A DNA stretch of 40,539 bases from Reclinomonas americana ATCC 50394 (Eukaryota), in the NCBI GenBank assembly GCA_048213135.1, contig PS015025.1:89170-129708 (forward strand), read 5' to 3'. Below the pieces are notes generated by a model that saw only the letters and a program-made list of their open reading frames with translations, made no database searches and had not been told where the DNA came from. A program made the translations under genes and the position numbers. Positions 1,924-40,204 of the stretch are shown here, in pieces (position 1 is the stretch's first letter; every line of letters starts with the position of its first letter).

Positions 1924-4900
1924 CAACAGTCAGGCCGGCTGCAATTACATCCTCGTAGGCGACACCGGACGATGCCGCACGCACGCAGACACGGTACACT
2001 CCGCCAGCCAGCATCGAGCCAGGAGTCACAGTCACACTCATTGCAGTGGAGCCAGTGACGCTATCGACAGTGCCGCCTACTCCTGCAGTCGTGTCGCTGC
2101 TCGAACTGCAAGAGCCACTGGTGAGAACCAGGGCTCGGGTCACAGTCTGCAGCGATGAGATGAATCCGGTGCCAGCGAGCTGCAGCTGCGTGCCGGTCCC
2201 TGCTGGGATGAGTGGAGGGCTAATGCTTGACACAGTGGCCAGCGAAAGAGAACTAGCACTCTCGTAGGTGGCGGCACTAGGCGACCAGCGAATACCTGCG
2301 GTATGCAGTCTGTCAGAGCACAGAGAATAGGAGGCATGTGACGATACGAAAAAAACGCAACAAAGTTGATAGATGCCGGCAGGTGTGGTGGCGGACGAGG
2401 TCACAACGTCCACGGAAAGTGTCTGCGCGTCGATAAACTGCAGCGACTGTGTCGAAGTGGACATGACAGCCACCGGCGACATGGCGGCACACGAGGCAGA
2501 CAGCACGAAAAGCGCGCTATCGCCCACCAACGAGGAGATAAAACCGCCGCCCGTCACCAGAATCGTGTGGCTGTGGTGGATGTGGGAAGAACGAAGTGAG
2601 GTCCGTGGGCTCACCATCACGCGAAGAGGATTTCATCTTACATGTTGCTGGCGGCAATGAATATGATTGCTGGTTGTACTGCGGTGGCTCGAGCGACGTT
2701 GACAACGCCGAGAGGACCAGGGCTAGCCGACGAACTCCAGCGTATGCTGCGACATGGTTTCGGTTGGTCATGCACCGCGATCTCTCCACACACGAACACA
2801 GTAGACACGAACCACAGAGTGTAGGCTCCCGACGGAATGTTCCTCGTGTCAATCGTCACCGTGATTCTGGAAGCGCTGACGTATGTGCCACTGATTGGAG
2901 CGCTAGATGCCTGCGCGACACTCTCCTGGCACCCAAAGCTAAGTGCACTGCTGTCGGTGGCCAGCGCATTGACGAACTGTGTCCCGTTGATGGTCACCGT
3001 AGCCGACGCGGTGGACCCCACCACCACCGGCGTGAGGCTGAATGAGGGTATGACAATCGATGCCACGACACTCCAGCTTGTGCACGCAAACGTCGGTCTG
3101 CAGCAAGAGTGAGAGGATTGATGTTTTTTTTAGTCGCAAGAGTCAGCAACGGTGGAGACTGAGAGACACTCGCCTGACACAAAGCGTGTAGCTGCCCGTC
3201 GCACTCGTCGACGAGTTGAATGTAAGAGTTATAGACGTGCTTGTCGAAGCGGAGATGGTGATCGGTATGGAAGACGCGGCGGCGGCACACGTCGACCCAC
3301 TGGAGAGGGCAAAGGCCTGCGTATCCGCAGACAAGCTCGGCAACGACGTGCCTGTGACGGAGATTGTTTCGCCGACACGCCGATGCAGCGCAAGAGGTGC
3401 AACAAGGGTCACCGCGGCTACCATCGCGATGGGTATGTAAATGAGTGCGCGCAATGCGACGCGGAATTCACGTGCGACAGGAACGCACCTGCCGCTTGAA
3501 CCGGGCCAGCATCGTAGTACGGCGACGAAGCTGACATGCGACCGCAAACTCGATATGTGACCGACGGCATCAACGTGGAGCCATTGATCGAGGCCAGTAC
3601 CTGCGTGTTGGATACCACGGTAGTCGCTAGCGAGAAGGCCACCGTGAAGCTGCAAACAAAAAGTTGTCTGTGAATGTCGGAATGAAGGAAACACGCAAAA
3701 AGCCAGTGACCTCACCCTGTGGCACACGAGGTGGCACTCAGAACGACCGCTTGAGCATCGGTGGAGGTGTTTTGCGAGCTGTCGGTTCGTGTCAATGACA
3801 GACACTGCCCAGCCAGCTGAAAAATGGTAGAGGGTGTGGAGGCAGTGAAAGTGGCCTCGGCCACAAAGGTACGCAAGGTGCCGTACTGAACGGTAAGGCC
3901 AANNNNNNNNNNNNNNNNNNNNCGGTGGCCACCACACGGAAAAAGTAGGTACCGCGAAGGGTAAGCCCCGATGCGAATGCCGACACGGTGGTTGGGCCGG
4001 TGCCGCCCACAGTGACCGGCGATGCGGTAATTGATGTCGCAGTGGGTGTCGTGAGCGTGCGAAGTGTGTGGTTACTCTGGTCGGTGATGTACAGAATGGC
4101 ACTGGAGGGGTCAAACATGATGCCGTACTGCGCGACGCATAGACACTGTGTCGTGAGAGTCGTGCATCGTCAGTCGGAACGGCGAGAAGAAACAAACCGG
4201 GTTGTTGAACCGAGCTGCCACCGAGGCACCGTCCACCGAGTCGCCCGCAGACGTGGACGGCAGACCCGCAATGGTAGTGATAACGCCCGTGGGGGAAACG
4301 GCGCGAATGCTGTTTGAGTTTTGCTGCGCACATCACCAGAAAAAGACGTGAGAACAACGCGACTGAAGAGAGTGCAGGGAATGACAGGAAGCGCAACATC
4401 GGCCACGTATAGAATGCCGCGCGACGCGTCCAGGCTAGCTGATGTGGGATTCCGCAGCTTGCCAACTCCCAAGGCACCATCCGTAATTCCACTCGTGCCT
4501 TTCGTACCGGCAAAGGTTGACACAGTCATCGTGGAGGTGACAATCTTTCGAATGCAGTTGTTGCCTCGGTCGACAACGTAAATCACCGAATTGGCCTGGT
4601 CAAGTACGGCGTGGTAGGGGCCGTTGAACTTGGCAACCCCCGGTCCGCCGTCTGTTGAACCACTCGATGCCGTGCCCGAACCAAACAGTGTAGTAATGGT
4701 GCTGCTGGCCGTNNNNNNNNNNNNNNNNNNNNNNNNNNNNNNNNNNNNNNNNNNNNNNNNNNNCGCAGTTCCAGTACTGGGAGAAGGAAGTACATGGAGT
4801 GACATACACCTGTCAGCAACAAGAAGGGAAGAAATGCGTGGTCCACAGCAGCCAGCAAGGACGCAACCGAATGGCGTGATTGCCGGCGTCGGCAATGTAC

Positions 4901-7900
4901 AGTGTCTGGCTTGTCGGGTCCACATACACGCCGCGAGGTTGGTTGAACGCCGCAACACTCCCTGTGCCGTCAGCCCACAACGGGGTGCCCGATTGTCCGG
5001 CAATGGTGGTCACCACACCACCGCTATCAATGCGACGCAGTGCATGGCTCAACGTCTGTCAGTAACGCCACACACAGTATCAGCAAGTGTTTCTCCGCAT
5101 GCATAAAGTCGCGTGAGCGCATTGCACTTACATCGGCGACGTAAAGAAAGTTGGCGGAAGTGTCAAACGACACGGATGCCGGTCTGCATCGAGGAGTGAG
5201 AAAAAAACAAGGTGGAAGCGATACCGCGAGCCATGCCGCCACCAACTCACGAATTGAATCGAGCTGCACTGCCAGTGCCGTCTTGGTAGCCGCGCAGACC
5301 GGCCGTGCCGGCAAAAGTGGTTACTGCGAACGTGCTGAGCACAACTCGTCGAATGGTGTTGTACCTGTCCATGTTGCAAGCAAGCAACCAAAAAAAGAAG
5401 GAACGCTGTCAGCAGCTGGTCAACACGGATGAGTGGCGTGATGAGGGCGACCACACTCACGAGGTGTCCGCAATGTATGCGTTGCCGGCGCCGTCGAGCG
5501 TGATGCCCTGCGGGTTGTTGAAGCGAGCAGCAAGGCCGGTTCCATTGGCTGAACCCTGCACGGTGGCAAGGCCGGCGACTGTAGTCACACTCCACACAAA
5601 TGCCGGCATGGTGGTGGCGTACTCCATAGTGATTGATGCTGTGCCTACGCCGCTGGCGTCGACGGTTCCCATCATGGTGGCGGCACTGTCGGCAGTGACT
5701 GCGGAGCCGGTGGACGCCAGCTGAGGTGCACTGGTCATGGTGGTGAAGCCGAACACGTTGCCGACAATGGGCACGGCAGATGAGGTGGCCACAGCACGGT
5801 AGTAGTAAATGGTGTTCGACGTCAAGCCGGTGACTGCGGCAGATACCAGCGAGCTCGAAGAGCCAGTGAGTACACTCGGCGATGTGGCAACGACGCTCGC
5901 CTGCGGAGCCGTCATCTTTCGGATTACGTTATTGAGGCTGCGCGCAGAATGAGAACAGAAGCGCAGACCCTGTCGAGCTCAATGGTACACACCTGTCGGC
6001 GACATACACATCACCGCCGGCGTTCACCGCCACACCAAGCGGATAGAAGAAGCGCACAGCGGCGCCCGTACCGTCCGTATAACCAGGTCCATTGGAGCCA
6101 CCGGCGTATGTGGTCGTGACACCGGCAGCAGTGGTCACACGTCGGATTCCTTGATTATTGAAGTCACCGATAAAGAGTGCGTCCTCGGTGGGCGTCAGCG
6201 CGATGCCTACGAGAAAGTTGAATCGTGCCGCAGTACCGGTGGCGTCGGTATTTCCGCCCGCAGTGCTGCCCGCAAGCGTCGTCACCACACCGGCCGATGT
6301 AATGGCTCGAATGAGACGGTTCTGGGTGTCGGCCACATACACCGTGCCGGAGGACGCGACACAAATGCCCGAGGGCCCTGGAGGCAGTCGCGTATGAGAT
6401 AAAGACCGTGAGCGATGAGTGGCAACACGACAAAAACCATTAAAGGTGGCCGCAGTGCCGGTGCCGTTGGCGGAGCCGGAGGTGCCCGTCGCATTGCCGG
6501 CAAACGTCGACACGGCGCCGGTGGCCACGACCACTTTTCGAATGGTGTTCGAGTCCGTGTCCGCAATGTACAAATTGGTAACAGTTGAATCGGCATCCAC
6601 GTCACCGGGGTTCTTGAGGATGCCTGGTGTTCCACTGCCGATGCCGTAGGAGCCAGCGGTACCGACTACGGTGCTTACAATCGCCGTCGATGTGACCTGT
6701 CAGCATGGTGAGAAGACTGCAAGTCGTTGATAGAGCGCACGATGCACGCAATGCACCTTGCGAATCGTGTTGGAACCCGAGTCGGCCACCCACAATGTAT
6801 CCGTGGAATCAATACCAAGACCACGCGGTCCATTAAGCTGCGCCGCAGTGCCGGTGCCATCAGCAGTGCCGCTGACGCCAACCTGACCGGCAAAGGTGCT
6901 GGTGACTCCGCCGGAGGTCACTCGCCGAATGAGATGATTGCCGGTCTGTGTGCAAAGTATTGGTTGACGTCCAGTGAGAAAATGTAAAAAATGCAAAGGG
7001 GGAAACTACTGCTGCAGCGCAACATCGGCCACAAAGATATTGCCAGTGGAATCCACCACGACATCATTCGGGGTGTTGAAGCGCGCCGTGCTACCGTCCG
7101 TGGTACCAGCGTTGCTGACGGAGCCGGCAAACGTCGACACGGTGGAAGTGGAAAGCACGATCTTGCGGATAGCATTGTTGGTGCTGTCGGCCACATACAG
7201 CAGACCGGCCTTGTCGGAGCGCAAGCCTCGAGGATAGTAGAAGCGAGACGCGGTGCCGACACCGTCAGCGTTGCCCGAGTAGCCAGAGCGGCCTACACAC
7301 GGAGAGGGAGAGAGAGGGAGGGAGAGGGAGGGAAGGAGAGAGGACGCATGAAAACAAAGACTATAACTGATGCGGCGAAAGCCAACAGAGAGACGCAACC
7401 GCAAATGGTCGTGACTGTGTATGGCGCGGTCGTGGAGACACGGCGAATAATGTGATTGTTCTGGTCCGTGACGTAGAAGAAACCGGCGCCGTCGAGCGCA
7501 CCACCAGCAGGATTGGTGAATGTTGCAGCAAGGCCATTGCCGTCGTTGCTTGACGCTGCTCCCGAACCGGCAACCGTGGTCACCGTACCTCCGGGAATCG
7601 TCATCTATGGAAGCGCAGTGCGGTGAACGACAGCACACTTGTGGGTGCGAATACCAGAGAGATGATGACCGCAACTGTTCGGACGGTGCGGTTATTGTTG
7701 TCGACCAGCCACGCAAGGCCATTGGCCGAGTCGATAGAGATGCCCCAAGGCTACGCACGCAGCATGTATTCAGCTTGCGATAGACTCACCAGCGACGGCG
7801 CGACAAAGGAACACGCACCGAACTCAGTCGCGCCACACTGCCTGTTCCGTCGACATTGCCGGGGGTGCCTGCCGATCCCGCAATGGTCGTCACCACGGCA

Positions 7901-8701
7901 CCGGGCACCGTGACGCGGCGGATGATGGAGTTGTCGGTCTGTGTTGGTGTGCAGTCGTCAGCGAGAACAGCAACGAACTGAGCTGTGCATCGTCGTCCAT
8001 CACGCAACATCGCACACATACAACGACGAAGTGACACTGTCGTAGTCGATGCCGGCGGGATTCTGCAGCGGAGTGTGAGGAGAACAGAGACGGGTTCTCG
8101 CCAAGAAGAAGATGTGCGCGCGAGTGCACCTGGAACCTGGCGGCCGAGCCCGTGCCATCCACACTTCCGGAGGAGGCACAGGTGCCAGCAAATGTGGTCA
8201 CCGCGCCGCCGGGAGTCGTGACGCGCCGAATGCAGTGATTGGAGCCCTGGAGAGGGAGGAGGGAGAAGGAGGGAGGGGATAGGGAGGTAGAGGGGAAAGG
8301 GTACAGAGAAGAAGAAGGGTAAGGGTGCGTGGGAAGGCCACGGGAGAGAGAGAGAGAGGAGGGAGAGTGGAGAGAGCAGAAGTGTGAGGTAAGAAGTGAG
8401 GGGGATGGCAAGCACGAGTGACACGCGGATGGCAGAGTCCAGGGGAGAGAGACGATTGTACAGAGCAAACGGGGGAGAGGAGCAACACAGGAGTGGGAGG
8501 AGACAAGTGAGGGGGATGACAAGCACGAGTGATATGCGGAGTGGCAGAGTGCAAGGGCAAGAGAGAGAGAGGGGGGTGGGAACAGACAATTGAGGGGGAA
8601 TGCAAGCACGAATGCAACGTGGAGTCACAGAGTGCAGAGGAGAGAGAGAGAGAGAGAGAAGTGAGGAGAATGACAGAATGGAATGCGGAGCCACAGGGTG
8701 C

Positions 8702-10979: not shown

Positions 10980-12010
10980 ATGCTCCTCCTTCGTCGCCTC
11001 TTCTCAAGCTCTTCACTCAGTCAGCTAAAGCGCCTGCCGAAGCGTGGCAGCAACGCGGACAGGCAGGTGTGTGTGTGTGTGTGTGCGTCTCCCGCTTTCC
11101 TCCGCCCAGTCACTCTCACTCTCTCCCGCGCGCAGCAAGTGTACACCATCCTCGATGAGGGCCCTCTGCTATGCACGGTTCTCCGCTGCACACACACGCA
11201 TTGCCACTCGCTGCTCATCTCGTTTGCAGGTTGCCGTGATTGTCGATGGCCACCCAGTGATCACGTTGCGTGCATGCATGCACACACTGCGAGCGTGTGC
11301 ACGCGTGCTCGAGTCTCACCTCTCGCGTGTTTCTCCTGCTGCAGGCCGACGCTCTTTGCACGCGATGGCGATAGCATTCTCCTTCACGGTACAGTCAACG
11401 CGCCCAGTCTCGGTGTGGTGTGCGCATTTAGCACGCTCATTGTTCAGCAGGTCATGCCGCCTCTCGCACCCTCCGCGCGGTGGCCAGTGGCGCTCCGACG
11501 TGCATCAACGTGGCCGCCACCGACGGTCTGGTGCTGGCGCGCGCGCTCTTCCACCACAGTGTCAACTATCGCTCGGCGACCGTGTTTGGCACGGGCGAGG
11601 AGATCAAGGAGGCGGAGGCCAAGATGCGAGCTCTCACTCTCATCAGCGACCGCGTGGTGCCGGGTCGCTGGGAGCGTGCGCGACTGCCGAATGAGTTGCG
11701 CTCTCCTCGTCGTCGTGCCTTGCTTTCTTTCTTTCTTTCGATCTCACTGTGGTGCAGCGCCGAAATGCACCTGACGTCTGTGGTGCGTCTGCACATTCAC
11801 GAGGCTTCGTACAAGTGCCGCGCGGGTGTGCCGGGCGACGACAAGGTCGACATTGGTGCCGATGCGTGGGACAAGGCGTGGAGTGGCGTGATCCCGTTGG
11901 CCAACGAGGTGCCGGGTGCGGTGGAACTCGATCCGACCATGTCGGCGCAGCATGCAAAGACGCCGGACTACATTGCGCAGTGGTTGCCGCCGTACCGTCG
12001 TAATAAGTAA
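10980..12010 (+). CDS. Pyridoxamine 5'-phosphate oxidase-like flavin-nucleotide-binding protein (NimA-related split barrel) with a putative mitochondrial presequence
   Basis: Spliced product: MLLLRRLFSSSS..KRLPKRG..VYTILDEG.LCTVA..P.ITPTLFARDGD.ILLHG..DGLVLARALFHHSVNYRSATVFG..VVPGRWERARLPN..WSGVIP. Five introns; TAA stop. Confidence 0.85.
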
Positions 12011-19125: not shown

Positions 19126-20270
19126 ATGGGCTGCTCACAAACAAAGCAAGCTGGTGAGTGAAGGAGAAGGAGAAGGAAAAGGAGAAAGAGGAGGAGAAGA
19201 AGAGTGTGGCAAGTGTGTGTGCGGATATTTTTTCCTCATTGTGTGTGTTGTGTGAGGGGTATCTGCATCAACGTGTCACGCGTGTCTGTCTCTCCTTTCT
19301 CTACTCCAAATGGTGTGGACAACGCGCATGCTCGTGTGCGTGCATGTGTGTGCGCGCGTGTGTGTGTGTGTGGGGTTGTCGCGAGTGTGAACATCACGCG
19401 CCATGCCGCATGCCCTCGCGACTCACACACGCACACTACAGACGCTCAGGCAAGTCGGCAGCGTATTCCGGCGGCGGGAGATGGCTCCTCGGGCGCAGGA
19501 GGCGCCTCAGCAGCGCGACCGGCGGGTGGCGCAGGAGCGGGATCGTCGGGCGCAGTGGCGGGCTCTGTGAGCCGCAGGATAGGCAGCGGCGGAGCGTGAG
19601 TACACAATGACAAGCGAGTACGCGTGCGTGCAGCATGCTCATTTCCTTGTTGGATGGAACAGTGAGGAGGATGACACTCGCATGGGCACGTCGTACACGG
19701 ACGAGCGCATGGCACAGCAGTTCTACAAGGAGATTATCGACCGAACGGCGCAGTTTCGTCTTCTCTCGCGGCAGCGTGTTTGACGGACGGTGGAGTGCTC
19801 ATTGAGTCTCTGCACAGCAACTTTATCGATGTCGATCAGATGCCCACCACGTTTGACTCGGCCGATGCGTCGCGCACCCTGCAAGTGTACTGGTTGGTAC
19901 AAGTAATAATTCCTTGCTGCGTCCGCTTTTCCTTGTGCCTGACTCGTTGGGCGCTGTGCACAGCGATCGCATTCGCAATCCCGAAGTCATGGAGCTGGTG
20001 GCGCACTCGTTTGCGCTGCCGCCGTCCAACGTGCGCGACGTGAACAGCCTCGTGTCGGCGGCCTCGGATGCCTCCATCTCGGCCGACGAAGTGGCACTGG
20101 TGAGTTTCCCTTTGACATTTTTGCTCGCTGCCAACACAAGTCTCACGTTTTGTTATGTTGCGCAGTTGAACCGCATCTCCGAGTCGCTGTCGCACGCACG
20201 ACGAGACATGACGGTGCACGGCGCCGAGCGGGTGGTTGTCCTGCTGCCGGAGATTTCCGCGCGTGCGTAA
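19126..20270 (+). CDS. LAMTOR1: Ragulator subunit LAMTOR1/p18 (Meh1/Ego1 family)
   Basis: N-terminal MGCSQTK lipidation-type start, the family motif FYKEIIDRTAHNFIDV and a C-terminal V...ERVVV.LP. Five introns; TAA stop. Confidence 0.75.
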
Positions 20271-20415: not shown

Positions 20416-21289
20416 ATGAGGGAGAAAGATCGCGCCTTTCGTCGCCAGCGCAATGAGCAAGGCGTGTCACTGACGGCGCTTGCTCGCCGTGGTGTCGGCA
20501 GAAACGTAACCCGCTCAAAACGTTTCGTTGAGTACACGCACATTCTCACGTGGCGTCACCACCTCACACGTCATCACCCGTCGCACACAGAGTTGAAGGA
20601 GGCCAAGGATCGGAGATGGCAGACAGTCATGTCGTACCGCAAGATGATGAAGAAGCTGGAGGCGGAGACGACGGGGCCTGATCGAGGAGTTGCGCGCCAT
20701 GTGCACATTCACATGCACAGACACACACACAGCAACAGCAGAGACACACACGTGATGCTTCAACTATTATCTACATTGTTTGAGATCTCATGAGAACACA
20801 AATCTGTTGCCTGATGTTGATCGCTGTTGTTGTCACTGTCACTGGTGTGTGCGCGATGTTTCCGTGATGAGATGACTCATTGGAATCGCGTTGCTGCAGG
20901 TGGCCGTCTACGATCACCTTCGTGACGAGGAGCAGCGCGAGGATGTGCACGCGCGTGTGCAGCAGCCAGAGCAGCCAGAGCGTCAGCAGCAGCAGCAGCC
21001 ATCACGCTCACGTCACTCTGAGAAGAAGACGACAACAACAGCGCGTCCGAATCCATTTGCGCGCGCACTGGCGACCGCAGCGCAAGCCAAGGCGGAGCGC
21101 GAGGCCGACTGGGCCAAGCAGCGTGCGGAGGCTGCGGAGGCGGCGGGAAAGCGTCACGAGTCGGAGGTCAGGCGTCGCGAACGCAGATTACAGTCGCTGA
21201 AGAAGACGCGCAAGGGACAGCCGATCATGAAGCACGTGATCAATGACTTGCTGGCGCGGTTGCAGGCCGATGAGGGCGATGGGAAGTGA
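20416..21289 (+). CDS. CCDC59/TAP26/Fyv7-like basic coiled-coil rRNA-processing protein
   Basis: Two introns (donors at 20522 and 20689); C-terminal KKTRKGQPIMKHVINDLLARLQ motif. Confidence 0.75.
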
Positions 21290-26800: not shown

Positions 26801-29258
26801 CGGTGGGCGAGCACGCCGGAACGTGAGTACGACTAATCTTGCTGTGGAAGTGTGTGTGAGACTGACGTCGTGTATGCGTGTGGGTTGATGCAGGACCGTC
26901 ATGGCTGCCAAGGAGCGCATCAAGAGCGACTTGGTGGCCTCTGGCGACGCTGCGCTCTACTCGGAACCCGAGCGTGAGGTCACGTCTCGCTCTGGCGACG
27001 ACTGTGTGGTGGCGCTGTGCGATCAGTGGTACCTGACCTACGGCGAGGAGGACTGGAAGCAGGCAGCTGCCGCGTTGCGTCGCACCGTGCATGCAGGGGG
27101 CGGGTATTGTTGCCTGCGTTGGTTTCTGACTGTTGGTCCGTGTAGTGTGGTCTCGAAGCTGGAGACGTACCAGGCGATGACCAAGGAGCAGCTGGAGATC
27201 ACGGTGAACTGGCTGAAGGAGTGGGCGTGCTCGCGCACGTTTGGTCTCGGCACGGCCCTGCCGTGGGACGAGTCGTACTTGATCGACTCGCTGTCGGACT
27301 CGACCATTTACATGGCGTTCTACACGGTGTGCCACTTGCTCCAGGGCAACTCGTTGGACGGATCGGAGGTCGGCCCAGCTGGCGTGCGGCCAGAGCAGCT
27401 GTCACCCGAGGTGAGTGGGGAGGAGAGGTTGAGAAAAGTGCACCATCACGATGCAGTCTGTGCTTACGTTGGCATGTCCAACAGGTGTGGGACTACGTCT
27501 TCCTGGAGGGCCCGTACCCACCACAATCTGGCATTCCGGAGGAGTCGCTGGCCAAGCTGCGTCGCGAGTTCAAGTACTGGTACCCGGTCGACTTGCGCGT
27601 CAGCGGACGTGACCTGATCAACAATCACTTGATTATGTTCATCTACAATCACGTCGCCATCTTCCCGGAGGTGCGAGCACCATGTCAACCGCCGTGTATT
27701 TTATGTCCTTTTACTTATATTGTTTCTTTGGTGTCGTGCAGTGGGCGCACCCGCGTGGTATTTTCTGCAACGGTTTCATCCTGGTCGACGGCAAGAAGAT
27801 GTCGAAGAGCGAGGGCAATTTCATCACTGTCCAGAGTTTCGTGCGCCATGCGATTTTTTTCATTGCCTCGTCTTTCGCTGACTCTTTTTCTTCTTGCAGA
27901 CGCCGTGCGACAGTACGGTGCCGATGCTGCTCGCTTTGCGCTGGCGGATTCGGGCGATGGCCTCGATTTCGCCAACTTCCTGCCCGACTACGCCGATCGT
28001 ATCATTCTGACCCTCACCACCGAGCTGGCGTTTTTGGAGAATACCATGAAGGACCTGAGCCAGTGCCGTACGGATGGCCAGTTGTCGTTCTTTGACCGTG
28101 TGTTCCGCGCCGAGATTGCTCACGCCGCCGCGGCCACTCGCGGTTACTTCTCCAAGTTGCGTGTGTTGTGGGAGCGCGTGTTTCGACTCATCGACGCGTC
28201 GCTAATGGTGACACAGGATGGTTTTCCACGACGCCCTGCGCACCGGCTTCTACGACCTGACGAGTGCCATGAAGCGATATCTGCTCGTGTACAGTTGCGC
28301 CTCCGATGCTCTCGCAAAGTCAACGCCTGCACAACACGACTTCTATTGCTTATCACGTGCACACAGACCGCGACCTCAGCCGCATGCACCGCGACACCAT
28401 TTTGCAGTACATGGAGGTGCACGCCATCCTCATTGCACCGGTGTGCCCTCACTACGCCGACTATGTGTGGCGCAAGATTCTGGGCAAGGTATGTTGTCTC
28501 CCTGCCATGTGTGTCGCTCGAGAGAGTGTCTGACTCGTGAGCAGAGCGGCAGCGTTGTCAACGCACGGTGGCCGGAGCTGCCAGAGACCCCGGTGTTGAT
28601 GGTGCAGGCAACATTCCTCGACAAGGTGCTGCACGACTGCCGTGTGAATATCAAGGACGTGCTCACTCGCGGCGGTGGCAAGAAGGCCAAGGTGCGTCAG
28701 TGCGCGCGCGCACACACGCTCTCTGCTCTGGCGTCGCCACATATTCTCACTGTGTGGTGCACAGGTGGCGGCTGACGTGCCAGCTCCCGACTGTGGTTAC
28801 ATTTTTGTGGCCGACACGTTCTCCGAGTGGCAGCAAATCACTCTGGAGGTGCTGAAGCGCGAGTATCATGCCAACGGCAACAGCATTCCGCGCACCATTC
28901 GCTCGACGCTGGTCAATGTGCCGGCGTTGAGACCGCTGATGCAAAAGGTCATGTTCTTTGTGGATCTGGTGGCGGTGAGTACTACGTGTGAAAGAGGGAG
29001 AGGGGGGGGGGCACAAGTGTTGGTTGCTCATGTGTGTGTGTACAGGCCGCCATTCCGGAGCGCGGCGAGGAAGCTTTCGAGAACCGCGCAGTCTTCTCCG
29101 AGCGTGAGGTGCTGGAGGACAACCGTGCATTCATCTGCCAGAGCCTGGGCATTGCGGACTTTACGGTGTTCTCCGCCGACGACGCCTCGGCGCCGGAGCC
29201 GGACAAGCGCGCCAACGCCATGCCCGGCAAGCCGACCTCGCACTTTTTTCGTCGCTGA
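23888..29258 (+). CDS. LARS1: Cytosolic leucyl-tRNA synthetase
   Basis: [12 protein letters not shown] (HIGH motif), [49 protein letters not shown] (editing domain), [16 protein letters not shown] and [10 protein letters not shown]. About 16 introns; spans the 24721-25469 gap. Confidence 0.97.
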
Positions 29259-29516: not shown

Positions 29517-30178
29517 TCAACAAACGAGGGAGCCTGCAGAGGAGCGACCATGAGTGGCGATGACAAGTGAATGCAGAGGCGGCCGCACGCACCTGCTGCA
29601 ATGCCACCGAGTGCGGTTATCAGTGCGAGTTTCTTGCTCACCGGATCCTCGGCAAACAGCATCATCCCGTGCGACGTGTCACCGGCCATCTTGCGCGGCT
29701 GCAGATTGGCGACGACCACACCCTGTGCGTGATCACAGACATCGGCATTAGCGATTGTCATCCACACACACACAAGAGAGAGAAACCCCGATGCACCTGC
29801 TTTCCGACGAGATCCTGCGGTGCAAAGTGCTGCTGCACACCGGCGAGAATCGTGCGAGGAGCCGCCTCGCCCACATCCACTTGCATGCGCAGGAGTTTTT
29901 TGGATTTCGGCATGATCTCGCACGACACAATGGTGCCCACCAGCAGCTGCAGCTTGGTCACGTCGGCGAACTCGACGGGAGAGAACACGGGTGCAGCGGG
30001 AGAGGGAGGGGGAGAGGGCGAAGGAGACGGCTCTCTGTGTTGTCTTTCATCAGCCACTGTGCAGGATGGTGCAGAGGCAAGTCCAACGCAACGAAGTGAA
30101 CGCTCGAACGAGGTGGCGCAGAGGGAGGAGCTGCGATGGTTGACGAGAGAGGCACTGCAGGCGCGGCAGGAAGAACAT
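29517..30178 (-). CDS. Standalone tRNA-binding OB-fold protein (Trbp111/CsaA/MetRS-C-terminal type) with a putative mitochondrial presequence
   Basis: Presequence-like MFFLPRLQCLSRQPSQLLPLRHLVRAFTS, then EFADVTKLQLLVGTI..KSKKLLRMQVDVGE..RTILAG..VVANLQPRKMAG.TSHGMML..GSLVC*. Three introns. Confidence 0.85.
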
Positions 30179-30320: not shown

Positions 30321-33300
30321 TCAGTGCGCGAATGCACGATCTTCAAACGAGATCAGCATGTTGACCTTGCGCACGTACGGGATCAGCGATGCGTTGCCGA
30401 GGATCTTCAACAGCTTGTCTTCGGTGACGTACTCCTCGCCCTCTTGACCCTCGATCTGTGTTGGTTGTTCAACGCGACACCGCAGTGAGTGGTTGGTTCA
30501 CCATTCGCTTCTTCTTGTGCACAAACCTTTCTGAGGTACTCGTAGAGGGCCAGGAAACGCGCCGGTCCAAGCAGGTCCTCGCACTCCTTTTGCAATCGCA
30601 CCACTCGCTCGGTGATGTCGCCGACCGGTGCACGAGCTGCAGCACGTGACAGTCAACATCAAGTCTTCCTTTTCTCATGCGTGCGCCAATCACACCAACC
30701 ATCGGGAGAGAACACGTGTGGCATGGGCCTTGGTCGTGACAGAGTGTCCTCCATCTCGTGTGCCACCTCGTCCCAGTCCTCGTCGGCATCGTCTCCATTC
30801 GCATCGCCCTGCAGAGCGACAAGGTGAGCCCACTGCAATACACAGCAAACAAGACCCTTGAGTGGTCAAGAACCTTATCAAACTCCGTGAGTCGGAATGG
30901 GGCGTTGCGAGTCGGCGGATCGAGCAGCACGTCAGCACCACTCGGCTGACGCTGCAGGCCCAGGCGAGCCTCCACACCTGTTCATCGACTCATCAGCATC
31001 AGCGTGCAAGAGAGAACCAACATCCACGCTTCGTTCACACATACCCGACAAGTGCGCCTCGATCTCGGCCAGTCGCGCACGCTGCTCATACTCGTCCTCC
31101 TCGTCATCGTAGTCGTCCTCATCGTCGTCGTCCTCCTCTGCCTCACTCGAATACTCGTCGTCGTCAGCACCTGACGAGTAGTACTCGACCGGCATGCTCA
31201 TCGCCGACGCAGCGCCGGCAGCACCAGCGGCTGCTGATGCGGAGCCGCTTGGTCTTTCCAGAGCCGACGAGTTCGGCGGGGGTGGAGCGCTTGGTCGCTC
31301 GAGTCGGTGTGGGTTACCTGAGACTGCGACATAATTGCCGGCTCGGTCACCGCCCGCCTCCATGGGGACCGGCCGAGAGAACTGCAGCAAACAACAAGTG
31401 TCGGCCAAAAGAGAAAAATATACTGTGCGTGGGAGAAGGCAGTACAGACCTGGGCAGGAAAGGGCCGCTTTCCAGCACCATTTCCGCGATCGACTACGCC
31501 CCCAGCTCCGCCGGCAGATGGGCGGCGGCCCACCTGCTCTTGCTGATAACCCTCGTCACTGTCCGAAGAACCGTCATCATCTCGTCCGCCCGCATGCGCA
31601 TTCGCCGACTTGCCCGCGCCCACCTGTGGTGCACAAGAGATGAGTGGCGTGGGAAGGCGGGAGATGGATATGAGCTTGCGTTCGCACCTCCAGCTTCCAA
31701 TTCTTGAGGTGTTCGCGTTGCTGGCGAACTTCCGCATTGGCCGACGACATGACGCGCTGTTCGCGTGCGAGACGCATCTCTGCAATGTTGTCGATCAGTG
31801 CCTGCACGAACGCACGCACACGAGATGGACAAAGCAGCACAGAACCTTCATCAGTGGATGCCTCGCGCTCCAGGAACTTCATGTGGTCCGGCAACACAAT
31901 CTCCACGCCAATGTCCTGGTGCGCGTTGCCTGCAGCCAGACACAAACAATCGTCAGTCTACCTTGCACGCAATCGTCTTCTCACTTGTTCACCGAGGAAC
32001 GAACCAGTCTCAGCTCGTTTCTTGCGGATTGCATCACGCAGCGAGCTCGACTCTCTGCACGCGACATGAGTATTCAGAATGCGTTAAACAACACGGCAGT
32101 CGTGATGCCGACGACAGACCTTCGGAAATGTTCGTGCGGCACACGCTTCTCGGTCAGCTGACCACGCGCCTTGCCTTGTGGTTCTCCTGCAGCGGCCGAC
32201 GGCGCCGCTTGCTTCTTGCCAGACGGACCACCCGCCATGCCAGCTCGCGCCGCTGCCACAGCAGCCGCAGCCGCGGCATTGGCCTGCCGACACAAATCAC
32301 CGCGTCAACATACGCACAAAACAAAAGAGCACTGTCAACCATGAGCGTGCATACCTGCGACGAAGGACCGCGCTCGCCCACCGAGTTGGATCGCGGTCTT
32401 GACTCGGTCGACACACTCGACGACCGCTTCCGCGCCACTCCATCATCGATGAGCACAGCCTCGCTTCTGCTGTGCTGCAGGTGTGATTCGTCGGCGCTGT
32501 TGGATTCGTGACTGCATCCGCGATGATGAAGTGAGCATCATGGAAAGTGATGGAGGACCAAAGCGAGAGCACATACCTTCTTGCACTGCCCAGAACATCG
32601 CCCTCGGAAGCTACCCGCTGCACCAGTTTTTGGTTGCCCACAAAAATCTCCACCTCCATTTCCTCTGCGCAGTCGAAATGAACACGGTCATTCCATCTCT
32701 CTCGTTCTTGACGTACACACTATGCTGTGCGGCTTACCATTCTTTCGCGCGTCGCCACGAGCGGCGCGGAACTGACTCTTCATCTCACGCAGCTTGGCCT
32801 GGTGCTGCCGAATCGCCTCCCTGTTGCGCGTGCGAGTCAGCATGGATGGATACACGTGGGCGTGTGTGTCAATGCCGGCGAGCGCAACTTCTTTTCTCGC
32901 TCAGCGGCCTCCCTCTCAGCACGCTGTGCCATCTCCAATTCCCGCCTCTCACGTTCCCGTTCGCGTTCGCGGTCGGCCTTTTGCTTGGCCGCCGCAGCCG
33001 CCGCAGCAGCTGCTGCTGCTGCCGCTGCCGACGCAGGAGGCGCAGCACCGGAGGGAGGTGCACCAGCGGGCGGACCGCTGGGTACCATCACTCCACCAGC
33101 ACCAGCCGCAGCAGCTGCCGCCTGACCTGGCGACGGCGCATTCAGCACGTGTGCCCTGGCCTGCCGCGCACGCTCCTTTTCCGCACGCCTGCGTCGCAGC
33201 ATACACGTAAGTGACATTCTCGGTGCAGATGCAAGCGCGACACAACGAGGTGACGTACACAGCCTCGGCGCGCTCCTGCACTTTTTGACGTTCACGATCC

Positions 33301-34006
33301 ATGCGCTCCTTGCGCTTTTCTCGCTCCCGCACAATCGCGTCGTGCTTCTGCTTCAGCTCGTCATTCTGGCCCACGCGTGCCAGCAGTTCCTGCTCCTTGG
33401 CCTGCCTCTCCTCCGCCGTCAGCCGCTTGCTTCGCGGCTTGGGGCGTCTGTGATGACCGTGCCCGTGACCGTGTCCGTGACTGTGGCTGCCGGAGCCGGT
33501 GCCTGAGTCATCCCCTGATTCATCATACGGCGATGCCGCGGCGGCCATTTGTTGTTGTTGCTGCTGTTGTAGTTGCATTTGTTGCTGTTGATACATCATC
33601 TGCTGCTGATGGTGTGCCTCGCCACCACGCGCACGATGCGCTTCTCGTGGTGCTCCTTGACCACCGCCACCACCACCAATCTGCGGCCGTGGATCCTCCG
33701 GGTGCAAAATGTTGCTGCGCGCGGAGAGGGAACACAGGGAAGGGAGAGGCTGGAGTCAGCAACGAAGCCCGTGATCGATAGCAAACAAAATAATGTTGAC
33801 GCAACTAAATGTCAATCATCTCCGCCTGCTTCTGCATGAACCAATCGTCGCCCATGACTGGCGGCGAGCGAGATGACGGTTGTGCTGGACCCACTGCAGC
33901 GCCGAGAGCCGGCGCCGAGATGCGTCGTGGAGCACCCTGGTTGGCTGCAGCTGCTTGCGATGGTGGTTGTGGTTGTGGCGCTGCTGGTGGTTGTGGTTGT
34001 GGTGGT
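30321..34006 (-). CDS. C-terminal, non-catalytic part of a NIMA-related (NEK1-like) kinase
   Basis: Multi-exon coiled-coil and low-complexity protein ending in RLQKECEDLLGPARFLALYEYLRK...LKILG...VNMLISFED, like NEK1/NEK11 tails. It starts in an N gap; there is a probable 1-nt indel near 31861. Confidence 0.7.
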
Positions 34007-34312
34007 NNNNNNNNNNNNNNNNNNNNNNNNNNNNNNNNNNNNNNNNNNNNNNNNNNNNNNNNNNNNNNNNNNNNNNNNNNNNNNNNNNNNNNNNNNNNNN
34101 NNNNNNNNNNNNNNNNNNNNNNNNNNNNNNNNNNNNNNNNNNNNNNNNNNNNNNNNNNNNNNNNNNNNNNNNNNNNNNNNNNNNNNNNNNNNAGGAGGAG
34201 GAGGAGGAGGAGGACAAGAAGAAGTAGAAGAAGAAGGAAGAGGAGGAAGGAGCACAAGAAGAAGGAAGAGGAGGATGACCATTGATGAAGCTCCCTTCTC
34301 CAACCACGCAAC

Positions 34313-34580
34313 GTCGGAGCAGGCACTCCCGGACCACCACGCGGTGCAAGCTTCCGGAACATATACTTGGCCGATGGCCTGTGCGTCACACTCTGCTTGT
34401 AGGCCGCCACCAGACTCTGCACACAAACAAACACATCAGTCAGCACACACACACACAAAAAAAGAAAGACTCACACACAAAGAGAGACGCAACTCGCGAG
34501 AACTCATCGCTCAGCTTGTTGACGCCAGCACGTCGCTGCTGCGTCGATGAGCTGCGCTGCGACAACAACGATGTCGCCAT
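34313..34580 (-). CDS. First two coding exons of the TPR protein, on an inverted contig
   Basis: MATSLLSQ...DEFSR|SLVAAYKQ...VPAPT ends in phase 2, which matches the phase of the TPR exon starting at 35437. The flanking (CCT)n/CTT intron sequence overlaps the next contig if this piece is flipped. Confidence 0.65.
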
Positions 34581-35436: not shown

Positions 35437-38296
35437 TGCCGCCGACACGCTTCGGGAGGCCGAGGCGACAATGACGCAGGGCAATCTGGAGGCCGCGTTG
35501 CACAAGATTGGCGAGGCGCTGGCGACCTCGGCTGGGGCGCAGGACTCGAATGCGTTCTACTTGCAGGGCGAGGCACTGCGTCGTACTGGTGACATGCATG
35601 GGGCGCTGGAGGCGTTTACGCATTCGCTGTCGCTGGATCCGATGGAGTACATGTGCTATCGTGGTCGCGCGCTGTGCTACTTTGCGGAGCAGCAGTATGG
35701 CGAGTGTGTGCGCGAGACGGAAAAGTACATCAAGATTGGCGATCCCGAGGCGGAGGTTTGTTGTTGTTGTTGTCTTCTCGTGACCTCCGATGACGGACAA
35801 CCTCTTATCCTCGTGCGGGAATTCGTAGGATTACCAACTGATGGCCAAGGCGCTGTTCCAGTTGCGCGACTTTGGTCGGGCGTTGGTGGCGTTTGAGGAG
35901 GCCAACAGTTGCGTCACTCTGCATCCGACAAGCAGTGTGATTCGTTGCGTGACAATTGCACTGCAGGAATGATGACGGCGCAAATGGGAGGCGGCAGCAG
36001 CAGTGATCTGTCACTGGATGGAGCCGGTGGTGGTGGCAGCGAGGCTGTGGAGCTGCAGTTCATGTTGGGACACTGTTACAATGCGTTGGAGCAGCCGGCC
36101 AAGGCGCGCGAGTGCTTCAACCGAGTGATGCAGTTGGATCCGTACTTTTTCCGAGAGCGCGTGGAGGACGCAGAGGCGGAGGAGAATGCTGAGAATTTCC
36201 ACTCGGCCATTGAGATTTACACGGCACTCTTCCCGCTGGCCTCGTCGGGATCGGCTCCACAGGTGCAGTGGGGGAGTGCGAAGGAGGTGCAGGTGATTGG
36301 AAGGTGCTCATTTCTTTACATGCTACAGGTTACCTTTGCCGAGGCTGATGAAGCTGGCAGTCCACCCTCGCAACCGGGCTCGTTGCGTACGCATTCTTTA
36401 TTCACCGAGGTTATCACATCAAACCAACACAATCCTTGCGTTTCCTTCTTCATCGACATCGCAGACCGCAAGACGCCGCTGCATCGCATGTGCGCTTCTT
36501 GTCGCCGACGCTGTGTGGCGCACCGTCGCTCATGGCCCCTGCGCACTCGCCGGCACTCATGATTTCACCCTTCAAGGGCGACGGCAATGTGGAGTTGTCG
36601 CCTGGCACTCGCGAGCGGTTACTGCTGACCGTCAGCGAGATGCACGCTTTGTGTGCGCGGTGTTGGCTGGCACTCTCCGAGCGCTCTGGTCACTTTGCCT
36701 CCATTCCCATGCTGCCTGGAGAAGGTTTGTGAAGAGGCAATGGAAAGTGAAGAGAGTCGAGCGAGGAGCTGATGGTGAGCTTTTTGGTCTGCAGGCGATG
36801 CGGAGAACCGACTGTACTTGGCGTTTGGCATCAGTGATTTGGAGGCTCGCATCGACGACGCTGCGGCGACGGAGGTGGAGAGCTCTGGTGCGCTGGATCC
36901 CGGTGCAGTGGCGTACGACGATGTCGCCACGGAGATCTTGCACGATGAAAACCTGTCCACGGCACTGCGCCACTTGTCGGATCGCGTCGATGCTTCGAAC
37001 CCGTCCGACACAATTCCGTTCATGGAGCGGGCACGAGTTGCGTGACGATCTATCTATCCCCTTCTGTGGTGGAGACAAGCTGCTGACTATTCGGTCAGGT
37101 GTACTTTGCGCATCGCATGTACAAGGAGGCCATTGGCGATTTCACCCTGTGCCTTCAAGCCGACCCGGTCAATGTGGAGGCTCTGCTCGGTCGTGCCGCC
37201 GCTCGTGTGCATCTGGCCGCAGCGACGCATCGTGGGCCAGTTCGCGCTGCGTTTGTCGATGCGCTGAAGCAGAGTGTTTCGAGGGTGCGTGAGAGGGAAA
37301 GGGGGGATGGGGGAAGGGAAATGAGGGAAAGGGGGAAGAGAGAAGGAGGATGTGTTTGAGGGCAAGAAAAATAATGAGAGAGAATGAGATTGGTGAGGCA
37401 TTGTGGGTGTGTGATATCGGAAGGTCAAGAAAAAATGAGGAGTCACAGTGTGTGTGTGTATGAATCAGGCAGAGTGTTGGAGTGTGAGAGAATGAGGGAA
37501 CAGTGCCTTGCCACGGATGCATTAGACTAATTGTGCATCACTTCCGCAGGACTTGTCGTCGGTGCTGATTGTGGACGAGTGGAACCTGTTGGCTCTCTCC
37601 GGTCAGCTGGCGGTGGCCTCGACCGAGGCTCACTCGATCGAGCGTGTCATCAAGTGTGTCATTCGACTGCTCCAGCTGGCTGCACGGTACGTGCCGTGAA
37701 AGGATGCGAGTGCCGATGGGGAATATTCATTCCTTGTTTCCTATGCAGCCGCGACGCCCCATCCTCCACCGTACACCTGGTGCAGCAGTTGCTGCACAGC
37801 GACAATGGCCGCAAGACCGTTCTCGCCATGGTGACCATGGGTCTGGAGATGCAAGACACGCTGATGGCGCAGGCTGGCGGCGAGGAGAGTGATGGTGCGT
37901 GTGCCTGCTGTTGCTGCCGGCATTCATTCACGTGTGATACTCACTCCAACTTCGCACAGTTCCGGTGCCACTGCGTGTGCCGACTTTGCTCTTCCTGGCC
38001 TTGCAGGCGGTGCTGGCCGCACATGCAGACCTGCTGGAGGGCACGCCAGCTCTGGATCTCATTCGGCAACGCGAAGGTGTGTGAGTGAATAGCAAAAGTG
38101 GGGGAGAGAGGTGTCGCTCTCTGACTTACTGTCGAATAACACAGAGGAGAGGAAGAAGGGAGTGGCCGACAACCTCGACGCATACATCAAGGTCAAGTCC
38201 AAGGGCTCAAAGGCGAAGAAGAAGGTTGGTGATTGTTGTCACACTGTCTGTGTTGTCTGTTTCGGCCAGTCTCTCACTCTTCCACACCCACAGTAA
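35437..38296 (+). CDS. Tetratricopeptide-repeat protein
   Basis: TPR motifs AFYLQGEALRRTGDMHGALEAFTHSLSLDP, LGHCYNALEQPAKARECFNRVMQLDP and YKEAIGDFTLCLQADPVNVEALLGRA. About 11 introns; the last exon may be only the TAA. Confidence 0.85.
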
Positions 38297-38361: not shown

Positions 38362-39511
38362 TCACCGATCCAGAAGCACATTGATGGCATCTGAGCACAA
38401 TTGCACATGTGAGCGCGATGTAAGCGCAATCAAACAAAGGCTGACTTGCACACGCAACTCTCCACGTTGTTGCCGGTCAGGCGAAGTGCCTGAGCGATTT
38501 CGTCGTCACTGGCCCACGGACACACATCACGCACACCAGCAATTGCCTCGGCCTGTGCGTGTAGTCATCACAGTAAGTATGGAGGCAGCAGAATCAGATG
38601 AGGGCAAAACACGGGGCGAACCGAAGGTGCTACTGCAAATGGTGGTCGAGGGGGCGCGGGTGCGGGTGCTAGTGGGGGTGCTTGTTGTTGTTGTTGAGGT
38701 GGTGGTGGTGCGCCAGGCACTGTGTGGATGCGGAGTGAGGAGGGGGTTAAAGGGGAAGGAGAGGAGAGAGGAAGGAGAAGGAGAGAGAGAGAGAGAGAGA
38801 GGAGGAGGGAAGGGAAGAAGGAGGAGGGAAGGAAGAGGAGGAAGAAGAGGAGGAAGAGAGAGGAGAGGAAGGGGAGAGAGAGAGGTGGAGGAGAGAGGCA
38901 AGCGAGAAAGGTGGAGAGTTAAGATATGAATTAGAAATGTGAATAACTTGTATGCAATCAGACAGGAGGAGGACAGAGGGAGAGGCATGTGAGAGAAGGT
39001 GCAGAGTGAAGATAGTCAGGGAGAGAGTAAGGACAGAAAGATGAGAGAGAGGAATGAGAGAGGAACAAGAGAAGCACATGCAATGAACGAAATAACAAAA
39101 AGAGTGAAGTGAGTGGAGGGACAGGAGAAAGAAGAACTGGCATGAATGGGGAGAAAGAGATGAGGCACCTGGAAACATTAATGAACAAGGCAGTGAATGA
39201 GAGAGGGAAAGAGAAGCGCGAGAGAACTGGGTGGGAGAATGAAAAACATGATGAAAAGCAGAGCATGACAGCACGGAGTGAGACAAGAGAAGAGAGACAA
39301 AGGCGCACGTATCGAGAAGGATGGGAGAGCGCAGTTGTGCTTACCATTTCGCCGTCGGAGTCCCTCAGCACCAGCACGTTGTGCTGCTGACTGGATGGTG
39401 AACTCGTCCCACTGAAGTGGTGGCGGTGGAGGTGGCTCAGCGGCAAACGCGGGCATCGGCGGTGGCGCGAATGCGTTGAACTGCTGTCCGCCCATGTGGA
39501 ACTGCTGCTGC

Positions 39512-39543: not shown

Positions 39544-40204
39544 CTGATAGCGCTGGAACATTTGTTGCTGTGCGAGCAGCAGCTGTTGCTGACGCAGTGC
39601 ACGCATCCGCTCCTGGCGTTGTCGGTCGAGAGCCAGCGGATGATTCGGTATCTCACCACGGCACACTGTTGGTTCAAGTCAGCGGAAGAGTGACGCTTCA
39701 CACGCACAGGCAGTGCGGACGCAACTTGGACAGATGGTGGAGGTCATCAACCATGGTCGAATGCACGCCCTACGCCTTGAGTGAGGAACGCTGCACGAGG
39801 CAACACGGGCAGAGTCACACAGCACGCAACTCATGGAACAAGTGGGAGCACGGGAGTTTCTTCGCAGCGTCCGTCATCTCCACGTGACAAATCGCACAAT
39901 CAGCGTGTCGTGCCAAGTCCTCTGGCGTCGCGTCGGCCGCACTGCACACATCCGCGCACACACACATGAGAGATAGGCGACAAGAGACAGAAACGGAGCG
40001 AGAAGGCACGCAACTCTCGCAGCAGCTGTATTACTTGGTTGCGAATCTGCCGCTGTCGCAGCAGTCGTCGAATGAAAAAGTACGAGCGGTAGCATTCCCA
40101 GATGACCATAATGTCGCGCGCCGTCAACTGGAAGCCGAAGAGCAGCCACACGTGGAGGAGGAACAAGGCGACCAGGGCGTGGCGGGTGATCGAGAGCATG
40201 AATT
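38362..40204 (-). CDS. Membrane RING-H2 E3 ubiquitin ligase with a C-terminal CUE/UBA-like domain (HRD1/gp78-AMFR-like), 5' partial
   Basis: A TM segment, then DATPEDL..DCAICHVEM..AKKLPCSHLFHEACIRPWL...CPMCR, a polyQ tract and VRDVCPWASDDEIAQALRLTGNNVENAINVLLDR*. Confidence 0.88.

Follow-up and report, generated by a model that had tools for sequence, protein, structure and literature searches.

The stretch of DNA considered here, 40,539 bases of contig PS015025.1 from Reclinomonas americana ATCC 50394 (hereafter the window), is eukaryotic nuclear DNA with 55% G+C, nine runs of N and very many short introns, and its noteworthy element is the sequence at which many of these introns begin. Introns starting with GTTGCG or GTTTCG (jointly GTTKCG) are referred to below as class 2, and those with any other, ordinary 5′ splice site (donor) as class 1; a slash marks the boundary between exon and intron, position -1 being the last base of the exon and +1 the first base of the intron. 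A preliminary description made from the letters alone listed 34 donors of the GTTKCG kind and proposed that they are ordinary donors slid by one base, served by shifted or bulged pairing of U1/U6 or by a variant small nuclear RNA (snRNA). All tests of these donors exploited protein homology and the statistics of the window sequence itself, and the junctions discussed are thus sequence-predicted.

Homology was brought in by means of our own protein-to-DNA spliced aligner, which accepts as an intron any segment of at least 30 nt that begins with GT (or GC, which is penalised) and ends with AG, and possesses no other splice-site information. It was applied to genes encoding a cytosolic leucyl-tRNA synthetase (LeuRS), the protein eRF1, and a flavoprotein of family PF12900 (NimA-like, pyridoxamine-phosphate-oxidase family); a further gene encodes a RING-H2 protein (Table 1). 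The best full-length identity of LeuRS is 46%, and in a quick tree of 24 rows the window protein sits on a long branch (1.26) that falls outside animals, fungi, green algae and oomycetes and lacks a sister with support; for eRF1 the best identity reaches 70%. Those PF12900 homologs that have a named organism are all actinobacterial, and the best unnamed matches (60% identity) could be eukaryotic; if this gene was acquired horizontally, its five introns would all be later gains. For eRF1 the alignments agree on seven ordinary introns, each placed with 15 or 16 of the 16 homologs, the N-terminal part being taken from the gene model. Here three micro-exons in a row, of 5 nt (18564-18560), 5 nt (18453-18449) and 8 nt (18377-18370) on the minus strand spell GNGTSMI, identical to the homologs, and with the following class-2 intron removed the universally conserved motif GNGTSMISLI is restored.

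GTTKCG sites as 5′ splice sites

Every one of the 34 claimed coordinates carries the motif (GTTGCG in 30 cases, GTTTCG in four), the hexamer is followed by T in 26 of 34, and the exon ends with A at 18 sites, C at eight, T at six and G at only two, namely 4867 and 7399, all in agreement with the preliminary description. Its use of the HLGH motif of LeuRS for pinning donor 24420 is upheld as well, since the junction CAT C/GTTGCG...GCGCAG/TT GGC CAC is chosen by all 14 homologs and is not slidable, and the same holds for HEAC and CPMC of the RING-H2 protein, where removal of the introns at 39830 and 39725 restores the spacing of the domain. With an aligner blind to the motif, class-2 donors are placed at eight of the 16 LeuRS introns, at two of five in the PF12900 gene and at one in eRF1. 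Removal of these 11 introns (for 18369 with the help of the gene model) and of three more judged by RING-H2 motifs restores a conserved frame; the other 13 of the 27 class-2 introns come from gene models or local frame tests.

Gene models were built at two levels. The donor-blind gene finder worked from codon usage, a length prior, YAG acceptors and a loosely defined branch motif, a donor being defined as GT only; of the 25 introns that homology supports it found 22, and donor-blind models misplaced 24420, 23284 and 11265. In ten good genes 14 of its 71 donors were GTTKCG, a sequence that stands at 63 of the window's 5158 GT dinucleotides (binomial p 2e-13). Retrained with a learned two-component donor mixture that includes position -1 (the self-trained model), the finder predicted every one of the 25 known introns and, of the 34 claimed donors, 24; within the genes that it modelled confidently, GTTKCG copies on the sense strand fall exactly at an exon-intron boundary in 26 of 39 cases, versus 61 of 1772 for other GT. 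The final catalogue of 90 introns follows the self-trained model, with one gene corrected by homology and four junctions added by hand; 60 of the 90 rest on our own gene models, and a homology-only subset comprises 30. Some class profiles and tests refer to an earlier tabulation of 61 class-1 and 26 class-2 introns (87 in total). Discarded on the way were a first ab initio model with linear length cost, which was too noisy and split LeuRS, and a local flank-scoring caller yielding 134 candidates, many of them false long introns.

It is exceedingly unlikely that the claimed sites are chance hexamers with the true donors nearby. Such an artefact would accord with the frequency of the GTTKCG hexamer, which is not enriched in the window (63 copies seen, 58.6 ± 7.7 expected, 63 being reached in 29 of 100 shuffles), with the little or no support for 34312 and 36382, and with the local support on which five other claimed sites depend. 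It is contradicted by the eleven donors that motif-blind homolog alignment chose (18369 with model and motif), by the three that RING-H2 residues fix, by the threefold enrichment of the heptamer GTTGCGT (27 seen against 8.9 ± 2.8 expected, in none of 100 shuffles attained) and by the next exon, whose first base is not G in 17 of 27 introns, so that there the junction cannot be redrawn one base rightward. As for the list of 34 as a whole, 14 donors are pinned by homology or motif, 13 have gene-model support and five are locally plausible, while 34312 and 36382 have little or no support. Among unclaimed motif copies, local tests at 836, 1335, 10657, 35944, 4956, 35861, 34894, 34903 and 40038 gave no convincing donor; 836 (+), 1335 (-) and 10657 (+) are GTTGCGT copies in regions devoid of a confident gene model. 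Short introns of the ordinary GT-AG kind truly begin at these GTTKCG sites.

Frequency, sharpness and context of class 2

Class 2 makes up 27 of the 90 catalogued introns (30%), in keeping with the quarter to a third estimated earlier, and 11 of 30 in the homology-only subset; its share varies by gene, from half of the introns in LeuRS to one of 12 in eRF1 and none of six in a gene at 13.5-15.3 kb. An unsupervised two-component mixture fitted to the 71 donor-blind donors separated them into 21% and 79%, all posteriors being at most 0.01 or at least 0.96, and the log-likelihood rose from -898.7 to -826.3 with the second component. Since this split is clean, class 2 is discrete. Exonic G at -1 is found before 59 of 63 ordinary donors versus two of 27 class-2 donors (Fisher p 6e-16), all-intron figures that are inflated because the mixture learned by the final model included position -1, and before 18 of 19 versus none of 11 (Fisher p 2e-7) in the homology-only subset, which is unaffected. 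A discrete peak anticorrelated with -1G, as the preliminary description had anticipated, is therefore present within the window.

Looked at from the side of the exon, 25 of the 29 donors lacking -1G are GTTKCG, and the other four are of the GT[GA][AC]GT type (GTGAGT twice, GTGCGT and GTAAGT). Ordinary donors are degenerate on the intron side, with GTTCTC, GTACAG and GTCTTG all seen after G; the earlier statement that most of them read G/GTGCGT, G/GTGAGT or G/GTGTGT was too strong, these hexamers amounting to 24 of 61, and the trait that ordinary donors share is the exonic G. The strictness of class 2 resides in U+3, C+5 and G+6, each invariant in 27 of 27, with G or T at +4 and, among 26 tabulated, T (18) or C (6) at +7, and the exon ends with A in 16 of 27. 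Thus class 2 is a discrete second donor class with the consensus A/GUUGCGU, to which about 30% of the window's introns belong and which is nearly confined to exons with a last base other than G.

In the rest of the intron the two classes coincide. Class-2 introns are GT-AG in 27 of 27 cases, with CAG (22) and TAG (4) as acceptors of the 26 tabulated, and the comparison of lengths and branch points proposed earlier revealed no difference: the medians are 70 nt for class 2 and 69 nt for class 1, and the YTNAY branch motif, present in 24 of 26 and 56 of 61 introns, respectively, lies at a median of 17 versus 17.5 nt from the 3′ end. Neither acceptor profile nor pyrimidine content distinguishes the classes; the acceptor consensus is (G)CAG, with G at -4 in 40 of 61 class-1 and 14 of 26 class-2 introns, and no marked polypyrimidine tract is seen in either (pyrimidine fraction 0.58-0.61). 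Intron phases 0, 1 and 2 are represented by 8, 8 and 11 class-2 and by 29, 21 and 13 class-1 introns, the difference being not significant (p 0.17).

These properties bear on the idea that class 2 is read by a transformed minor (U12-type) spliceosome with diverged U11 and U6atac, to which we give very little credence. Class 2 does resemble U12-type introns in its long near-invariant intron motif, in the lack of an exonic G consensus and of an excess of phase 0, but a donor of the form [AG]TATCC(TT) occurs in none of the 27 class-2 and none of the 63 class-1 introns, a branch sequence CCTT[AG]A[CT] is absent from the last 40 nt of all 27 class-2 introns (CCTTRAY is not found in the 63 class-1 introns either), and branch motif and distance are those of class 1. 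A different proposal concerns origin only and is compatible with any mechanism of recognition: an introner-like mobile element with a GTTGCG end could have seeded class 2. The extreme intron density, with micro-exons of 5, 5 and 8 nt, would agree with it and, taken together with five introns (two of class 2) in the PF12900 gene whose named homologs are actinobacterial, suggests ongoing intron gain. Even so, seeding by such an element appears unlikely, given that all-against-all blastn of 87 introns returned no class-2 matches, that duplex energies between 5′ and 3′ intron ends are no better than in cross-paired controls (p 0.30), and that class-2 lengths equal class-1 lengths. The only matches in that blastn comparison were (GT)n among three class-1 introns; these microsatellites occupy 13752-13886 (+), 18454-18559 (-) and 17582-17657 (-), two of them directly at the donor.

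The remaining class-2 introns and the weaker claimed donors are collected in Table 1 together with those described above. Donors 8008, 7023 and 4397 on the minus strand share one site within tandem NHL repeats: all three are in phase 0 and follow Y-V-(A/C)-D with an identical GAT codon, and these introns were evidently copied along with the repeat. Removal of an in-frame TAG had been advanced as pinning 33805; reading through does run into TAG, and the frame stays open once a 91-nt intron is taken out, a local frame test that makes this donor locally plausible. The product of the small gene at 29480-30178 (-), within which claimed donor 30092 lies, has an arginine-rich, presequence-like N-terminus followed by a tRNA-binding OB-fold domain (...VVVANLQPRKMAGDTSHGMMLFAE...). 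One further donor, gag/GTGGCGTCG at 21956-22021 (+), is predicted by both models and assigned by the mixture to the class-2 component (class-1 posterior 0.01); it may be a class-2 variant with G at +3.

Table 1. Genes, class-2 introns and claimed GTTKCG donors of the window. Boundary, last three exon bases/start of intron. Group: pinned, by homology or motif (14); model, gene-model support (13); local, local plausibility only (5); none, little or no support (2).
Feature	Position	Strand	Boundary	Length (nt)	Phase	Group	Evidence and remarks
PF12900 gene, 5 introns (2 class 2)	11001..12007	+					spliced alignment to 20 homologs
PF12900 class-2 intron	11265..11344	+	cac/GTTGCGTGC	80	2	pinned	20/20 homologs
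PF12900 class-2 intron	11695..11757	+	tga/GTTGCGCTC	63	2	pinned	20/20 homologs
eRF1 gene, 12 introns in about 2.4 kb (1 class 2), three micro-exons	16588..18979	-					spliced alignment to 16 homologs, gene model
eRF1 class-2 intron, after 8-nt micro-exon AGCATGAT	18301..18369	-	gat/GTTGCGGCG	69	2	pinned	needed for SMISLILPP; donor-blind model
LeuRS gene (cytosolic), 16 introns (8 class 2), interrupted by N-run 24721-25469	23888..29255	+					Pfam matches, spliced alignment to 14 homologs, gene model
LeuRS class-2 intron	24071..24355	+	gga/GTTGCGTGC	285	0	pinned	7/14 homologs (three of the 14 alignments begin downstream of the donor); acceptor 24355 or 24358; model agrees
LeuRS class-2 intron, HLGH restored	24420..24487	+	atc/GTTGCGTCT	68	1	pinned	14/14 homologs
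LeuRS class-2 intron, in-frame TAG removed	24601..24662	+	gct/GTTGCGTAG	62	0	pinned	13/14 homologs
LeuRS class-2 intron	26232..26304	+	gca/GTTTCGTGA	73	1	pinned	12/14 homologs; donor-blind model
LeuRS class-2 intron	27074..27145	+	cgc/GTTGCGTCG	72	2	pinned	14/14 homologs
LeuRS class-2 intron	27836..27899	+	aga/GTTTCGTGC	64	1	pinned	14/14 homologs
LeuRS class-2 intron	28156..28216	+	caa/GTTGCGTGT	61	2	pinned	14/14 homologs
LeuRS class-2 intron	28294..28366	+	aca/GTTGCGCCT	73	1	pinned	9/14 homologs; donor-blind model
RING-H2 class-2 intron	39942..40014	-	aga/GTTGCGTGC	73	2	pinned	frame runs into ...ATPEDLARHADCAICH (CAICH); model
RING-H2 class-2 intron, CSHLFHEAC restored	39770..39830	-	tga/GTTGCGTGC	61	2	pinned	spacing C-x-H-x2-H-x2-C
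RING-H2 class-2 intron, CPMC restored	39666..39725	-	caa/GTTGCGTCC	60	1	pinned	last cysteine pair of RING-H2
Claimed donor, acceptor uncertain	2296..2361	-	ttt/GTTGCGTTT	66 or 162		model	only inside low-scoring gene models
Class-2 intron, after YVAD	4324..4397	-	gat/GTTGCGCTT	74	0	model	donor-blind and self-trained models
Class-2 intron, G at -1	4777..4867	-	tcg/GTTGCGTCC	91	2	model	donor-blind and self-trained models
Class-2 intron, after YVAD	6946..7023	-	gat/GTTGCGCTG	78	0	model	donor-blind and self-trained models
Class-2 intron, G at -1	7293..7399	-	gcg/GTTGCGTCT	107	1	model	donor-blind and self-trained models
Class-2 intron	7605..7675	-	aca/GTTGCGGTC	71	0	model	self-trained model
NHL-repeat gene class-2 intron, after YVCD	7939..8008	-	gat/GTTGCGTGA	70	0	model	self-trained model; repeat register kept in product
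Class-2 intron	19753..19817	+	gca/GTTTCGTCT	65	2	model	donor-blind and self-trained models
rRNA-processing-domain gene class-2 intron	20689..20899	+	gga/GTTGCGCGC	211	0	model	self-trained model, low-scoring gene; local frame test
RGS-domain gene class-2 intron	23284..23338	+	cac/GTTGCGTAC	55	2	model	self-trained model; donor-blind model took in-frame GT 9 nt upstream
Class-2 intron	32821..32888	-	gaa/GTTGCGCTC	68	2	model	self-trained model
TPR gene class-2 intron	35908..35966	+	aca/GTTGCGTCA	59	1	model	donor-blind and self-trained models
Class-2 intron	37037..37098	+	cga/GTTGCGTGA	62	0	model	donor-blind and self-trained models
Claimed donor	20522..20590	+	aac/GTTTCGTTG	69 (plausible)		local	local frame test only
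Claimed donor, would join ATG-started presequence to tRNA-binding-domain exon	30035..30092	-	ttc/GTTGCGTTG	58		local	frame reading; weak codon score
Claimed donor, TAG on read-through	33715..33805	-	tta/GTTGCGTCA	91		local	local frame test only
Claimed donor	34417..34493	-	cga/GTTGCGTCT	77 (plausible)		local	local frame test only
Class-2 intron	38391..38458	-	aga/GTTGCGTGT	68	1	local	local frame test only; joined peptide ...LTGNNVEnAINVLL
Claimed donor	34307..34312	-	gac/GTTGCGTGG			none	no acceptor found before N-run 34007-34192
Claimed donor	36382..36464	+	ctc/GTTGCGTAC			none	weak; local score 3.2; models pair same acceptor with another donor

Register of class 2 and its pairing partner

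The register was judged by scoring the flanks of class-2 junctions with the position matrix of class 1, either in the canonical alignment or slid by one base. For intron positions +3 to +8 the sum is -185.3 bits in the canonical and +142.9 bits in the slid alignment, and for exon positions -3 to -1 it is -110.7 and +15.9 bits, respectively, so the impression of an ordinary donor slid by one base, recorded in the preliminary description, is borne out. Even the second choices match the slid profile: class-2 +4 and class-1 +3 both prefer G and after it T, +7 and +6 both prefer T and after it C, and A stands at -1 and -2, respectively. Because the exon side fits only when slid, a shifted register is favoured over a bulge, which would keep -1G. 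In the bulged arrangement G+1 and U+2 would be paired canonically, one U (+2 or +3) would be extruded and GCGU would occupy the usual +3 to +6. Its intron side is indistinguishable from that of the shift, giving the same +142.9 bits, and bulge registers at +2/+3 are reported, in the available text of PMC4856993, as validated for a few human sites and predicted for 68. Nevertheless, a canonical exon frame should favour -1G, whereas G is seen in two of 27 and it is A that is enriched (16 of 27); the score of the exon side is -110.7 bits in that frame compared with +15.9 bits shifted, and the pairing calculations described next permit bulges and still fail to raise canonical U1 above random GT on class 2. 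The bulge is accordingly an unlikely candidate.

Pairing with U1 was evaluated by duplexfold, leaving the duplex free to shift or bulge, for the canonical U1 5′ end (ACUUACCU), used as the 11-mer given in PMC4856993, and with 600 GT sites as controls. Canonical U1 binds class-1 donors with a median of -6.9 kcal/mol versus -2.5 kcal/mol for controls (p 4e-26), and class-2 donors with -1.6 versus -2.5 kcal/mol (p 1.0), that is, no better than random GT in any register or with any bulge. C occupies +5 in 27 of 27 class-2 introns and the matching position in 21 of 63 class-1 introns. Since canonical U1 is without predicted affinity and C+5 is invariant, a shift of the human style on a standard U1 is insufficient, and an altered or second U1-like RNA is predicted. 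Given G at position 5, a hypothetical U1 pairs more stably with either class than with controls (class 2, p 4e-5). For a hypothetical 5′ end that complements GUUGCGU, pairing is strong with class 2 (median -11.9, p 4e-17) and weak with class 1. An Rfam scan of the window gave no match at the gathering score. Of the options offered in the preliminary description, shifted pairing is thus preferred to bulged pairing, shifting of canonical U1 does not suffice, and the variant snRNA is what the donors would call for.

Taken as a whole, the explanation that we find somewhat more convincing than its negation is that class 2 represents a genuine discrete donor class read one nucleotide out of register by a non-textbook U1-type snRNA, the organism probably possessing an altered or extra U1-like RNA. 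Such an snRNA would pair with class-2 sites one nucleotide off the ordinary register, so that intron G+1 would stand where ordinary donors have exon G-1, U+3, G+4, C+5, G+6 and U+7 where they have U+2 to U+6, and A-1 of the exon where they have A-2; the later steps, engaging U6, U5 and Prp8, would cut at the sole GU present, one base upstream of the cut in ordinary donors. The partner might be a single U1 with G opposite C+5, a guess to which we lean slightly, or else a U1 paralog reserved for these sites and complementary to GUUGCGU. A more specific proposal, a two-key major spliceosome in which ordinary U1 would be accompanied by a dedicated U1-like snRNA complementary to GUUGCGU serving about three in ten introns, is tentative and rather unlikely on present evidence. 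If true, U1 and U11 would be joined by a third type of RNA that recognises 5′ splice sites, introns could sit without the AG/G context, and the extreme intron density could find its explanation.

A competing view dispenses with U1 pairing, or leaves it a minor role, and lets a sequence-specific protein or direct docking of U6/U5 read UUGCGU. It draws on the lack of predicted affinity of canonical U1 for class-2 sites, on the invariance of U+3, C+5 and G+6 (27 of 27), strict as a protein-binding motif, and on a flexible noncanonical U6 register that, according to the available text of PMC11162779, was proposed for one human site. We regard it as improbable, since class 2 mirrors the slid class-1 profile down to the second choices, as expected of shared RNA pairing and not of a separate protein motif, and the window offers no candidate factor that could be named.

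Several observations weigh against reading class 2 out of register by means of a changed U1. The gain of class 2 from the G5 variants is modest (-5.5 or -7.5 compared with -4.0 or -5.1 for controls). GTGAGT, which suits canonical U1, is the commonest ordinary hexamer (nine of 61), and a single altered U1 therefore fits class 1 less neatly. Two features are not explained by a shifted register alone, namely the depletion of -1G (two of 26 against a background of about 29%, p 0.016) and the rarity of compensation of the H/GTGCGT type (four of 29). To these should be added the inflation of the all-intron statistics mentioned above, the paralogy of 8008, 7023 and 4397, which as parts of tandem NHL repeats are not independent cases, and the derivation of the pairing partner entirely from the donors.

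Class 2 among known splicing systems

Recognition of the donor by the 5′ end of U1 belongs to the most conserved RNA-RNA contacts of eukaryotes, and to our knowledge pairing out of register has been met only as a rare human curiosity. A slid and strict donor in about 30% of introns provides a natural system for the question of how the cleavage site is fixed when U1 binds off-register, for the limits of drift in U1/U6 pairing, and for whether a second recognition RNA lets introns colonise sites without the usual exon context. In practical terms, gene finders relying on a single donor matrix will get one junction in three of this genome wrong. A whole-word literature search covering GTTGCG, GUUGCG, GTTGCGT and GUUGCGU, with supplements outside it, did not find these words in a splicing context, and of the papers that a search on divergent U1 5′ ends in protists returned, only that on the diplonemid case considered below is relevant.

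The closest likeness is to the +1 shifted-register 5′ splice sites that Roca and Krainer are said to have described in humans in 2009. As in class 2, GU is followed there by the block of the ordinary consensus displaced by one nucleotide and the cut is made at GU; intron G+1 pairs where exon G-1 normally does, and the same is proposed for class 2. The differences lie in abundance and affinity: class 2 alone accounts for 27 of 90 introns, its GUUGCGU has an invariant C with which canonical U1 cannot pair, and no binding of canonical U1 is predicted. In humans all validated noncanonical registers together comprise 1.5% of 201,541 donors, according to the available text of PMC4856993.

With U12-type introns class 2 shares a second strict donor motif lacking an exonic consensus and residence in the same genes as ordinary introns; it differs in that the donor is not RTATCCTT, that an ordinary YTNAY stands at an ordinary distance and that its abundance is far higher. 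The nonconventional introns of Euglenozoa have paired ends and no GT-AG, whereas in class 2 the ends are unpaired and GT-AG is present. In plants and animals two anticorrelated donor classes, AG//GU and //GURAG, were described in 2022 (PMC9803359), and in the available text of that source, as here, exon and intron strength are anticorrelated, a strong intron motif going with the absence of exonic G and a degenerate one with its presence. Unlike //GURAG, the intron-strong class in the window is //GUUGCGU and has no match to the ACAGA box of U6 in the normal register; moreover, its split is nearly all-or-none, compared with correlations of -0.17 to -0.38 given for the AG//GU and //GURAG system (PMC9803359).

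That a protist may have a second U1 gene with a different pairing end is exemplified by the diplonemid Sulcionema specki, whose alternative U1 snRNA has its 5′ end changed into a run of C (PMC12621601). In the available text of that paper both U1 species are comparably complementary to one donor logo, with no discrete second class of donors. For Sulcionema specki the second RNA is reported, and in the window it is the donor class that is known from sequence, the U1-like RNA being predicted.

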